64,000 bases of DNA, from positions 46,194-110,193 of IMG/VR virus record IMGVR_UViG_3300020421_002402. One strand, 5' to 3'. Below the pieces are notes generated by a model, which saw only the letters and a program-made list of their open reading frames with translations, was not told where the DNA came from and searched no databases. This document shows positions 10,013 through 12,434 of this stretch, piece after piece; position 1 is the first letter of the stretch, and each line of letters opens with the position of its first letter. Origin of the DNA: a virus. The translations under genes were made by a program, and so were the position numbers.

Positions 10013-10657
10013 ATGAAAAATTTAATCAGTATTGAGAATGGATATAAGGCTTTAGTAGTTTTACTATTGTCTATTATGGCATTCGGAGCCCAAGCGGCTT
10101 CAGTGAGTGGAAATGTTGGTTACGGAAGTGATTACATTTTCAGAGGTCAATCTCAAACACAAGGCGATAGTGCATTGTCAATGGGTCTACATGTAGACGC
10201 AGGAGCAGGCGTATATGCTGGAGTTTGGGCATCGGAAGTTTCATATGCTGGCAGTAATGCTGACAGAGAAACTGACATGTATGTAGGTTGGGCAGGAGCA
10301 ATCGGAAAAGACTTTGGTCTTAACGTGGCTTATATCGACTATGCATACAGTGGTGATGCTTCTTTAGACGGTTCAGAGATTTTTATCGAAGGATCATATA
10401 AAGATTTGACTATATCTCACAACATCGGAAACGATGACTTCAACGACTACACAGAAGTCTCATATAACATAATGAACGCAGTTGATGTGTCTTATGGTTC
10501 ATGGGATAATGTAGGCGACAACTGGTCAGTAAGTAGAAGTTTTGAATTACCTATGGGTATTGAAGGAACAGTTGCTTATGTAGACTTTGCCGCTGAAGAC
10601 GGCTCAGGACTTGCAGACGAAGATACTTTTGTATTTTCAGTTAGCAAATCATTCTAA
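10013..10657 (+). CDS. TorF-family putative outer-membrane porin
   Basis: Signal peptide AQA-A, SDYIFRGQSQT, GVYAGVWAS, ETDMYVG, terminal Phe. Confidence 0.85.
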   Translation: MKNLISIENGYKALVVLLLSIMAFGAQAASVSGNVGYGSDYIFRGQSQTQGDSALSMGLHVDAGAGVYAGVWASEVSYAGSNADRETDMYVGWAGAIGKDFGLNVAYIDYAYSGDASLDGSEIFIEGSYKDLTISHNIGNDDFNDYTEVSYNIMNAVDVSYGSWDNVGDNWSVSRSFELPMGIEGTVAYVDFAAEDGSGLADEDTFVFSVSKSF

Positions 10658-10701: not shown

Positions 10702-10953
10702 TTATTTTATATAGGACCCTATTCTTTTATAAAAGTTCATAACAAATAAATTTAATTTTGGTTTTTCCCACATTCTTTCATGCCAATAGTATAGAACCAT
10801 TTTAGTTAATACTTCTATACTCGCAATACTGGCACCAATAGCCGCACTACCTGTTAATAAGAAACTGATTAAAAAAGTATCAGCAGATGCTAATACACGC
10901 CATGTACAGGCTTTTAATGTCGAGATAATTCTATGTCGCTTTCTCGTATTCAT
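10702..10953 (-). CDS. DUF2061-like small membrane protein
   Basis: STLKACTWRVLAS...TKMVLYYWHERMW. Confidence 0.8.
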   Translation of the reverse strand: MNTRKRHRIISTLKACTWRVLASADTFLISFLLTGSAAIGASIASIEVLTKMVLYYWHERMWEKPKLNLFVMNFYKRIGSYIK

Positions 10954-11015: not shown

Positions 11016-11252
11016 TTATAGTACTCTAGTGTTGTCTTTGGATTCTATAAACTGTTGTAGTATGTCCGCTTTTTCGTTTTTTATAACATCTATTATTGTG
11101 TTGGTTAGATTTATTTCCTTTCTAACCATTTGCATCTTGAACATGAGTTCCTGCATTACTTTTTGATAGTATAACAGTTCTTCTTCTTTCGCTTCTTTAT
11201 CCTTTATTAAATCGGATATTAGAATTATTCTAGCAAATTTGTCCTGTTGCAT
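11016..11252 (-). CDS. Hypothetical coiled-coil protein
   Basis: 78-aa ORF preceded by TAAGTA-5nt-ATG. Confidence 0.65.
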   Translation of the reverse strand: MQQDKFARIILISDLIKDKEAKEEELLYYQKVMQELMFKMQMVRKEINLTNTIIDVIKNEKADILQQFIESKDNTRVL

Positions 11253-11329: not shown

Positions 11330-11377
11330 TTGATTTTTGCCAAAAAAGTACTATATAATGTATATAGATTATAAATA
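11330..11377 (+). promoter_or_regulatory. Tandem sigma70-like and T4-late-like promoters
   Basis: TTGATT-18-TATAAT (11330-11359) and perfect TATAAATA (11370-11377). Confidence 0.65.
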
Positions 11378-11378
11378 T

Positions 11379-11703
11379 CTTTGCATTTTAAGAAATAAAG
11401 GAAGTGCAAGGGCGATAGAATCGTAAGAGACTAAAGTCTACTGTACAACTGCTATAACTAAAAATGCCGTGTATAATCAACTAAGGAAAAATACACAAGG
11501 TTTAAGGATCGTAAGTGAAATAGACCGAATGGCATTAGTACTAAGAAGGCTATACATGATTGGGTCCACCAACAAAGGACCGGAGATGGTAACATCAAAG
11601 GAAACCAAGAAGATGGACAAGTGTCGTGAGGAGATACAGACACATACTAACAGAAACGACCTCACAATGCGACCTTTTAATTCGCCAAATGGGTTTTGAA
11701 AGG
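11379..11703 (+). ncRNA. Candidate large structured RNA or 5' leader of hsp20
   Basis: At least eight hairpins, a three-way junction, a GTAA tetraloop and a GTGAGG/CCTCAC pseudoknot. Confidence 0.6.
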
Positions 11704-11738
11704 ATGAGAAAGAATAACTTGCTATATAGGAGATTATT

Positions 11739-12179
11739 ATGAATAAGCAAATCCGATTCACTACCGAATCACTTTCCCCACTATATAAAATGTCCGTAGG
11801 CTTTGACAGACTTGCAGAGCAGTTTTTTAACGATCCTACGTTCACTAATAACGCAACAGGGTATCCACCCTTTAACATCAGCAAAGGCAAAGATGACATT
11901 TATGAAATTACTTTAGCCGTTGCAGGTTTTAAGAAAGATGACATCGAAATTGAAATTGAAGATGGTACTTTGAAAATATCAGGTACATCTGCAGTATTAG
12001 ATTCAGATGAAATCGAATATCTTCACAAAGGTATTGCTGAAAGAAACTTTACTAGAACATTCAAACTAGCAGAGTTTGTAGAAGTAAAATCAGCAAAACT
12101 AGAAGATGGTATTTTAAGAGTTTCATTATACAGGAACGTACCTGAAGCAATGAAACCACAAAAGATTAAAATATCATAA
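11739..12179 (+). CDS. Small heat-shock protein Hsp20/IbpA
   Basis: GYPPFNI, LAVAGF, YLHKGIAERNF, LEDGIL. Confidence 0.95.
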   Translation: MNKQIRFTTESLSPLYKMSVGFDRLAEQFFNDPTFTNNATGYPPFNISKGKDDIYEITLAVAGFKKDDIEIEIEDGTLKISGTSAVLDSDEIEYLHKGIAERNFTRTFKLAEFVEVKSAKLEDGILRVSLYRNVPEAMKPQKIKIS

Positions 12180-12197: not shown

Positions 12198-12224
12198 GGG
12201 TAGCAGTATTTTCTGCTACCCTTT
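12198..12224 (+). terminator. Hairpin/terminator after hsp20
   Basis: GGGTAGCAG/CTGCTACCC followed by TTT. Confidence 0.6.
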
Positions 12225-12230
12225 ATTATT

Positions 12231-12434
12231 ATGGCAAAGAAAGACAAAAGAAAAACATTATTGTATTTGATTCCAGAAGGTGAGACTAGAGATAGTCACA
12301 CATATCATTATACATTTGTCAAAACAAAAAACTTGACAATTGATAATAAGAAGTTAAAATTAAAGAAGTATAATCCAGTCAAAAGAAAACACGAATGGTT
12401 TATAGAGGCTAAGTTACCACCACATAGTAAATAA
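12231..12434 (+). CDS. rpmG: 50S ribosomal protein bL33 (Cys-free type)
   Basis: MAKK...Y.Y...K.K......KLKLKKYNPVKRKHEWFIEAK. Confidence 0.85.
   Translation: MAKKDKRKTLLYLIPEGETRDSHTYHYTFVKTKNLTIDNKKLKLKKYNPVKRKHEWFIEAKLPPHSK

Follow-up and report, generated by a model that had tools for sequence, protein, structure and literature searches.

The locus examined here raises the question of whether the non-coding gap that precedes a phage small heat-shock gene encodes a structured RNA and, if so, what that RNA would do for the gene. The gap (positions 11370–11738, + strand) is flanked by a promoter region on one side and by the start codon of hsp20 (11739) on the other, in a window of 64,000 nucleotides, the whole stretch of DNA that was analysed; a minus-strand ORF ending at 11252 forms its upstream border and hsp20 its downstream border. 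The parent record is a 110 kb IMG/VR virus, and this size in combination with a CheckV completeness of 31% identifies its source as a large uncultured phage. The gene itself (11739–12179, + strand) encodes an IbpA-type small heat-shock protein of 146 aa (Pfam HSP20, 3.6e-18; PHROG Hsp20, 4.9e-37), for which no relative of more than 60% identity was found in cultured phages. Two genes further upstream are unusual phage cargo: one for a signal-peptide protein with a Gcw_chp outer-membrane-type domain (10013–10657; 8.4e-16) and one for a DUF2061 membrane protein (10702–10953, − strand; 3.6e-22).

A search of the whole window against Rfam 15 at gathering thresholds produced no matches. At E ≤ 10 a 601-nt region containing the leader gave nothing, a longer relative gave noise only and a 106-nt stretch gave noise apart from a weak ROSE_3 alignment, while ARAGORN identified neither a tRNA nor a tmRNA. 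The manA motif, which the earlier note had raised as a possible identity, is thus excluded, as are tmRNA, RNase P, group I and II introns, 6S RNA and the known riboswitches, as far as the Rfam models and ARAGORN can see, and by these models the leader belongs to no described (Rfam) family. A blastn search of the leader against deposited phage genomes likewise returned no match.

Homologs were collected in two ways. A protein-anchored search yielded eight close loci, the upstream regions of which align as conserved blocks split by variable-length insertions, and pattern searches with the most conserved loop of the RNA (the HE loop) yielded 18 viral and 73 marine metagenome stretches. These 91 matching stretches, all marine, contain 59 unique 3′ domains. 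Each of the 89 homologs with enough downstream sequence runs into UAACUUGC (in one case AAACUUGC), a Shine–Dalgarno sequence (SD) and the hsp20 ATG, and not one case of the leader RNA away from hsp20 was encountered in about 90 loci. Because every homolog with enough sequence ends in the SD and start of this gene, the leader RNA is strictly tied to hsp20, and the cis-regulatory position that had been proposed for it is borne out. The 3′-domain covariance model R1 found no match at more distant phage hsp20 loci.

Folding of the single sequence indicates a mild excess of structure only, with z = −2.4 relative to shuffles on the + strand and −1.2 on the − strand. The comparative evidence for structure, which is drawn from the aligned homologs, is strong and decisive: the leader RNA is real, conserved, structured and strongly covarying. 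Its architecture comprises about 13 helices and 67 pairs over 11405–11738, with about 55 conserved pairs outside the SD hairpin. The large structured RNA that the earlier note had placed at 11370–11738, subject to covariation among homologs, is accordingly upheld by covariation that is abundant.

For the 3′ domain (11564–11703) a covariance model was built from the 59 unique sequences, these were realigned and the pairs were counted, with partners slid by 1–3 columns as a control for the pairing counts. Pairs are formed in 90.6% of cells, compared with 37–46% in the slid controls, and 25 of the 32 pairs show double-sided changes. The first half of the domain (11564–11618, + strand) is enclosed by helix HA (GUCCA/UGGAC), which is 99% paired with covariation in all five of its pairs, and contains helices HB and HC together with the conserved strands CCAACAAA and AAGAAG. 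HB joins GG 11577–78 to CC 11605–06, its first pair occurring as G-C (29), C-G (18), A-U (9) or U-A (3), and HC (11580–11601) consists of a GUAA-looped hairpin with a lower CC/GG, covarying in eight of nine pairs and including the GAUG-GUAA-CAUC hairpin (11585–96) recognized from the single sequence. The second half (11618–11703, + strand) begins with CAAGU (11618–22), which is invariant and unpaired. It is followed by helix HD (GUGAGG/CCUCAC, 11626–31 and 11660–65), which is 88% paired with covariation in seven of eight pairs and closes a conserved 28-nt loop, then by GCGA (11669–72) and finally by helix HE (CCUUUUAA/UUGAAAGG, 11673–80 and 11696–703). HE, the final stem of the earlier proposal, is 99.6% paired, and its basal pair occurs as A-U (36), U-A (18) or C-G (2). 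Its loop holds the conserved AUUCGCCA-NNN-GGGUUU that served as the search pattern, so that invariance of this loop among the homologs is at least partly forced by construction. Invariance or near-invariance extends to the unpaired strands CCAACAAA, AAGAAG and CAAGU, to the greater part of the loop of HD and to that of HE.

Automated folding was less informative for the 5′ domain (11405–11536), where RNAalifold returned no structure on a MAFFT alignment; its helices were proposed by eye and from a covariation scan and were then counted on the homologs. By this count 88.7% of cells pair, compared with 36–43% in slid controls, and 16 of 23 pairs show double-sided changes. G-U pairs are retained in 46 of 46 and 43 of 46 sequences, which places the RNA on the + strand. 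The domain opens with a long stem (11405–11445, + strand) composed of P1b (UGCA 11405–08/UGUA 11442–45) and P2 (GGGC 11410–13/GUCU 11436–39); it is 95.4% paired, with changes on both sides in five of its eight pairs, and is capped by a hairpin of the form GAAUC-GUAA-GAGAC (11417–11432, + strand), whose closing pair occurs as A-U (34 sequences) or U-A (10). A three-way junction follows (11463–11536, + strand). Helix J (AAUGCC/GGCAUU, 11463–68 and 11531–36), which closes it, is 88% paired and shows compensatory changes. The first arm, P4 (11469–11496; GUGUAU/AUACAC, 11469–74 and 11491–96), forms a hairpin in 33 of 36 unique homologs although the sequences are unrelated, and the second, P5 (11499–11526; GGUUUA/UAGACC, 11499–504 and 11521–26), is 95% paired, with a sixth pair that is G-C in 35 sequences, U-A in five and A-U in three. 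All three helices of this junction had been predicted correctly from the single sequence. P5 is capped by a second hairpin of the same kind as that on the long stem (GGAUC-GUAA-GUGAA, 11506–11519, + strand). The shared motif, GRAUC-GUAA-GWGAM, is thus present twice (11417–11432 and 11506–11519) and amounts to a GNRA loop on a C-G pair over a purine-rich internal loop; in three homologs (L149, L165 and L212) the second copy has a 17-nt insertion between its C and its GUAA, which is itself a GCAA-capped hairpin. The strings GUAAGU and UACUAAC resemble eukaryotic signals, a likeness that was rejected as coincidence, since no gene is interrupted here.

About half of the stems listed in the earlier note are correct, and five are not conserved: CGAU/AUCG (pairable in 55% of cells), AGAC/GUCU (57%), GGUCC/GGACC (64%), GUGUC/GACAC (60%) and the alternative GUCGU/ACGAC (58%). 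In three of these five cases one strand has another covarying partner; GUCU pairs with GGGC (96.7%) and GUCCA with UGGAC (99%). The proposed pseudoknot does not survive either: GUGUC/GACAC, the stem whose loop was to contribute GUGAGG, lacks conservation, which leaves GUGAGG/CCUCAC as a simple nested helix.

The first of the listed stems, CUUUGCA 11379–85/UGCAAGG 11405–11 (P1, 11379–11411, + strand), has an intermediate standing. It can form in 88.5% of cells, but nearly all of these owe their pairing to invariance and G-U pairs rather than to real compensation, and P1 excludes P1b and P2. When the 3′ strand of P1 varies, it is 11442–45 that compensates (C-G 32/U-A 14; G-C 21/G-U 16/A-U 9) and not the P1 5′ strand, so that by covariation P1 is at best an alternative pairing.

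Long-range pairings between the 5′ and 3′ domains were also sought. The candidates GCAAG/CUUGC, CGAAU/AUUCG, CAAGU/ACUUG and GCGA with UCGC or UUGC are unsupported, because their partners are invariant or vary without compensation, and a covariation scan between the two domains produced no convincing pair.

The two domains are separated by a variable linker (11537–11563, + strand), 27 nt long here, whose place is taken in many relatives by an extra, optional domain (the central domain) that can reach about 250 nt. This central domain (L059:13590–13750, and at the same place in L041, L053, L141, L145, L146 and L147) contains two copies of UCUUCAAAAG(A/U)GC(A/U)CGG, and its GAGCAC and GUGCUC are complementary, so that it may represent an internal duplication or form a pseudoknot; it has no match in Rfam. 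A further subgroup (L090, L141/L151/L205, L177, L185, L193 and L206) carries an unrelated 5′ domain while retaining the ATAAATA box, the 3′ domain and the SD hairpin. Comparison of these leaders indicates that modules are swapped within the family and, given the replaced 5′ domain and the optional central domain, that the RNA is built of modules around a constant 3′ domain. Between ATAAATA and HE, the last conserved stem, relatives have from 258 to 559 nt.

Transcription of the leader could start at two places. A sigma-70-type promoter (11330–11359, + strand; TTGATT, 18-nt spacer, TATAAT) agrees with the consensus at 10 of 12 positions, is kept in most homologs and is missing from the L059/L147/L176 subgroup; its start is expected near 11366. 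The second candidate is the TATAAATA box, which had been noticed ahead of the RNA and is present at 11370–11377 (+ strand), where ATAAATA (11371–77) is invariant in 74 leaders. Overall the ATAAATA box is not enriched in the window; 19 of its 24 copies lie on the + strand, and copies at 1823, 23041, 24530, 37812, 38307, 39140, 40609, 54737 and 61796 (all + strand) each precede a further gene start of the SD-plus-ATG kind by 20–45 nt, so that at least nine other genes have the box in this position. From this strand bias and position the box is probably the phage's own late-type promoter motif, which we take to be comparable with the T4 late promoter type. Its start site would lie about 6 nt downstream, near 11383, and such a start would remove most of the P1 5′ strand, so that only transcripts from the upstream promoter would be able to form P1. 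Reckoned from these two putative starts, the leader is about 357–374 nt long here and about 330–630 nt long in relatives.

At the other end of the gene a terminator-like hairpin of 9 bp with a T run (12198–12221, + strand) lies between hsp20 and an L33-like gene (rpmG, 12231–12434, 67 aa; Pfam Ribosomal_L33, 25.9 bits, barely over the cut-off), which is followed by clpS and sufB. Owing to this hairpin hsp20 may be a transcription unit separate from rpmG-clpS-suf, and the earlier suggestion that the RNA heads an hsp20-rpmG-clpS-sufB unit is not sustained, the only visible regulatory contact being with the hsp20 SD.

That contact is made by a hairpin at the 3′ end of the leader (11713–11738, + strand), in which the anti-SD CUUGCU (11718–23) faces the SD AGGAG (11728–32) above a lower A-U stem (11713–17/11734–38). 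A variable linker of 10–30 nt separates it from the conserved core. The nine bases immediately 5′ of the SD, UAACUUGCU, are present in 89 of 90 homologs, the UUGCU at 11719–23 sits 4 nt upstream of AGGAG, and the loop between CUUGCU and AGGAG varies from 4 to 7 nt. G11721 must either bulge or face G11730; RNAfold yields both registers among the homologs, and the bases themselves are invariant. The pair right above this core is complementary in 33 of 33 unique sequences, as U-A in 17 and A-U in 16 (16/14 on the tool alignment A5), and because this pair covaries the formation of the SD hairpin is shown at the comparative level. The lower A-U stem, which reaches the start codon, has a partner that beats permuted partners (4 of 300), and its register varies among homologs. 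Nearest-neighbour energies give the hairpin very little stability (0 to −3.3 kcal/mol at 37 °C), and for the isolated hairpin a thermodynamic forecast has the SD opening with temperature, its predicted probability of being unpaired going from 0.30 (5 °C) to 0.71 (45 °C).

An anti-SD of the form U(U/C)GCU in the 3′-proximal hairpin is the stated hallmark of ROSE-like ibpA/hsp thermometers (PMC3669281). This feature is present here, and the element also belongs to the 5′ UTR of an Hsp20/IbpA small heat-shock gene; the compact leader of two to four hairpins (about 60–120 nt) is absent. The Rfam ROSE_3 model aligns with 11695–11744 at 11.7 bits (E = 2.6) and does not reach its gathering score of 43. 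The SD hairpin is thus ROSE-like in sequence, and the leader as a whole lies outside the ROSE family by size, architecture and Rfam score.

The SD hairpin provides the most concrete mechanism for the leader. As the 5′ leader of the phage hsp20 mRNA, the RNA would exert translational control in cis. CUUGCU would pair imperfectly with the SD, leaving one G unpaired, and the A-U stem would extend the pairing to the start codon; a hairpin of such weakness would mask the ribosome-binding site at low temperature and melt under warming or stress, and opening of the SD would allow Hsp20 to be made on demand. The modular fold upstream would play an accessory part, adjusting how the A-U-rich sensor hairpin folds, how stable it is or at what threshold it responds, and might also serve Hsp20 itself as a docking site. 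We infer the temperature response of the leader from this model of the hairpin, and the role of the upstream domain is assigned in the same spirit. A leader that acts in cis on hsp20 translation, with the ROSE-type hairpin as thermosensor and a large accessory core, is on balance the probable reading.

The conservation of the core bears on whether it is an accessory at all. Its invariant loops and junction strands suggest that it does more than aid folding, and the invariant loops argue for a specific contact. It is conceivable, and is put forward tentatively, that the core of about 300 nt belongs to a novel class of large structured RNAs and has its own function, either as a second sensor (of Hsp20 occupancy, another protein or a metabolite) or through a switch between P1 and P1b/P2. 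Were this so, the choice between P1 and P1b/P2 would differ between the transcripts of the two tandem promoters, and the phage would merge temperature with infection stage or proteotoxic load in one leader.

It is rather unlikely that the core senses a protein or small molecule and relays the signal to the SD hairpin, although the long invariant sequences left unpaired (among them CAAGU, CCAACAAA, the loop of HD and two GRAUC-GUAA-GWGA hairpins) are more than a helper hairpin would need. The concrete version of this explanation is self-repression of the IbpA type, in which oligomers of phage Hsp20 would bind the leader and block translation until titrated by proteins that aggregate during infection. 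A precedent exists, since IbpA of E. coli and other bacteria represses its own translation by binding the ibpA 5′ UTR, for which R93 is required (PMC10474464). Residues Y42, R102 and R106 of the phage protein correspond to Y34, R93 and R97 of E. coli IbpA, and its GIAERNFTRTF compares with GIAERNFERKF in Salmonella IbpA; the GYPP tyrosine is kept, and IbpB is without these residues. The phage residues are compatible with IbpA-like mRNA binding, and this is a matter of compatibility only: many alpha- and gamma-proteobacterial IbpAs have R93, so that its retention may simply reflect descent, and the position of K98 is occupied by T. A relay to the SD is also disfavoured by the leader itself, in which a conserved pairing of the core with the anti-SD was looked for and no supported coupling was found, by the linker, which varies in both length and sequence, and by distant phage hsp20 genes, for which short leaders suffice.

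That the upstream fold senses nothing and mainly protects or stabilizes the message, against 5′ decay or phage or host nucleases, is improbable. A compact multi-helix fold at the mRNA 5′ end would suit such a role, and transcript stabilization has been suggested for the first hairpins of ROSE leaders (PMC3669281). Nevertheless, a start at the ATAAATA box would leave about 20 nt of the 5′ end unpaired, and a fold this large, with invariant loops and an optional central domain, goes beyond what stabilization needs.

Very little probability is given to a separate trans-acting non-coding RNA, such as a CsrB-like protein sponge or a processed small RNA, that would be co-transcribed with hsp20 by chance. 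The large size, the variable linker between core and SD hairpin and nine AGGA motifs in the window are in its favour. However, GGA is not conserved as GGA in loops: the triplets lie in helices (HB and HC) or vary between G and A (alignments A2 and A4), and the only conserved unpaired GGA besides the SD is in the HD loop of one subtype (alignments A2 and A4), so that a CsrA sponge of the CsrB/RsmZ type was rejected. The constant company of hsp20 in about 90 loci also stands against it, as does the leader RNA being single-copy in the 110-kb record, and the stretch from the promoters to the hsp20 SD yielded no terminator-like site. Finally, the suggestion that the region encodes a small protein, from the 76-aa ORF at 11469–11699 (76 open codons with a GTG start) or from a minus-strand ORF, can be dismissed as next to impossible, since the closest relatives (L173, L175 and L162) have in-frame stops and frame changes in place of the coding conservation that the earlier note had wished to see checked, insertions of 0–250 nt fall inside the ORF, its product has no Pfam match and the substitution pattern is that of a paired RNA.

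The preferred reading, a ROSE-type thermosensor with a large accessory core, has consequences beyond this locus. RNA thermometers are usually regarded as short, poorly conserved and bacterial. Here the ROSE-type hairpin is phage-borne and forms part of a leader that ranks among the larger ones known with covariation support, in a family that has neither an Rfam entry nor a cultured representative. Provided that the prediction for the hairpin holds, abundant uncultured marine phages would tune their chaperone output to temperature or stress at the level of translation. With its well-defined core and rich alignment data, the family lends itself to asking what a large 5′ domain contributes beyond simple melting.

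The nearest known systems are the ROSE-like thermometers, represented by Bradyrhizobium hspA ROSE1 and the ibpA elements of E. coli and Pseudomonas (Rfam ROSE, ROSE_2 and ROSE_3). Common to these and to the giant leader are the 5′ UTR of an IbpA-type hsp20 gene, structured elements upstream, and a 3′-proximal hairpin in which U(U/C)GCU (here CUUGCU) faces the SD with its G unpaired or opposed by G, in a weak imperfect pairing suited to thermal melting. The known leaders consist of two to four hairpins in 60–120 nt (those of Pseudomonas being short, with two hairpins), whereas about 13 helices in 360 nt are present here and up to about 630 nt in relatives; the giant leader adds a three-way junction, GNRA-capped motif hairpins and invariant loops, is far under the Rfam thresholds, and is phage-borne and marine. 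In comparison with the Pseudomonas elements, the sensor stem here is composed of A-U pairs only, without flanking G-C clamps.

Short leaders of other phage hsp20 genes form a second point of comparison. Two groups share the CUUGCU-UAAU-AGGAG hairpin with the giant leader but have a single upstream hairpin and a total length of about 55–75 nt. The first (L010:2880–2965, also L011 and L014) has a TATAAATA box upstream and aligns end-to-end with ROSE_3 (18.8 bits, E = 0.032), with a weak match to freshwater-2 (19 bits, E = 0.28). The second (L015:2860–2960, also L016–L019) has a TTGACA-type sigma-70-like promoter and a GUAA-capped first hairpin. The 3′-domain model R1 has no match in these short phage leaders, which in global alignment fit the giant leader no better than shuffled sequence does, and a homology of P4 plus UACACAA with hairpin I of the short L015 leader was considered and rejected, as its global alignment is no better than those of shuffles.

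In size the giant leader is closer to GOLLD, ROOL, HEARO, OLE, raiA and the IMES/manA motifs, with which it shares a large, multi-domain, covariation-supported structure, discovery in metagenomes and association with phages, as well as GNRA loops and variable peripheral domains. None of the Rfam models for these RNAs matches it, and unlike all of them it strictly serves one gene and ends in a recognizable expression platform.
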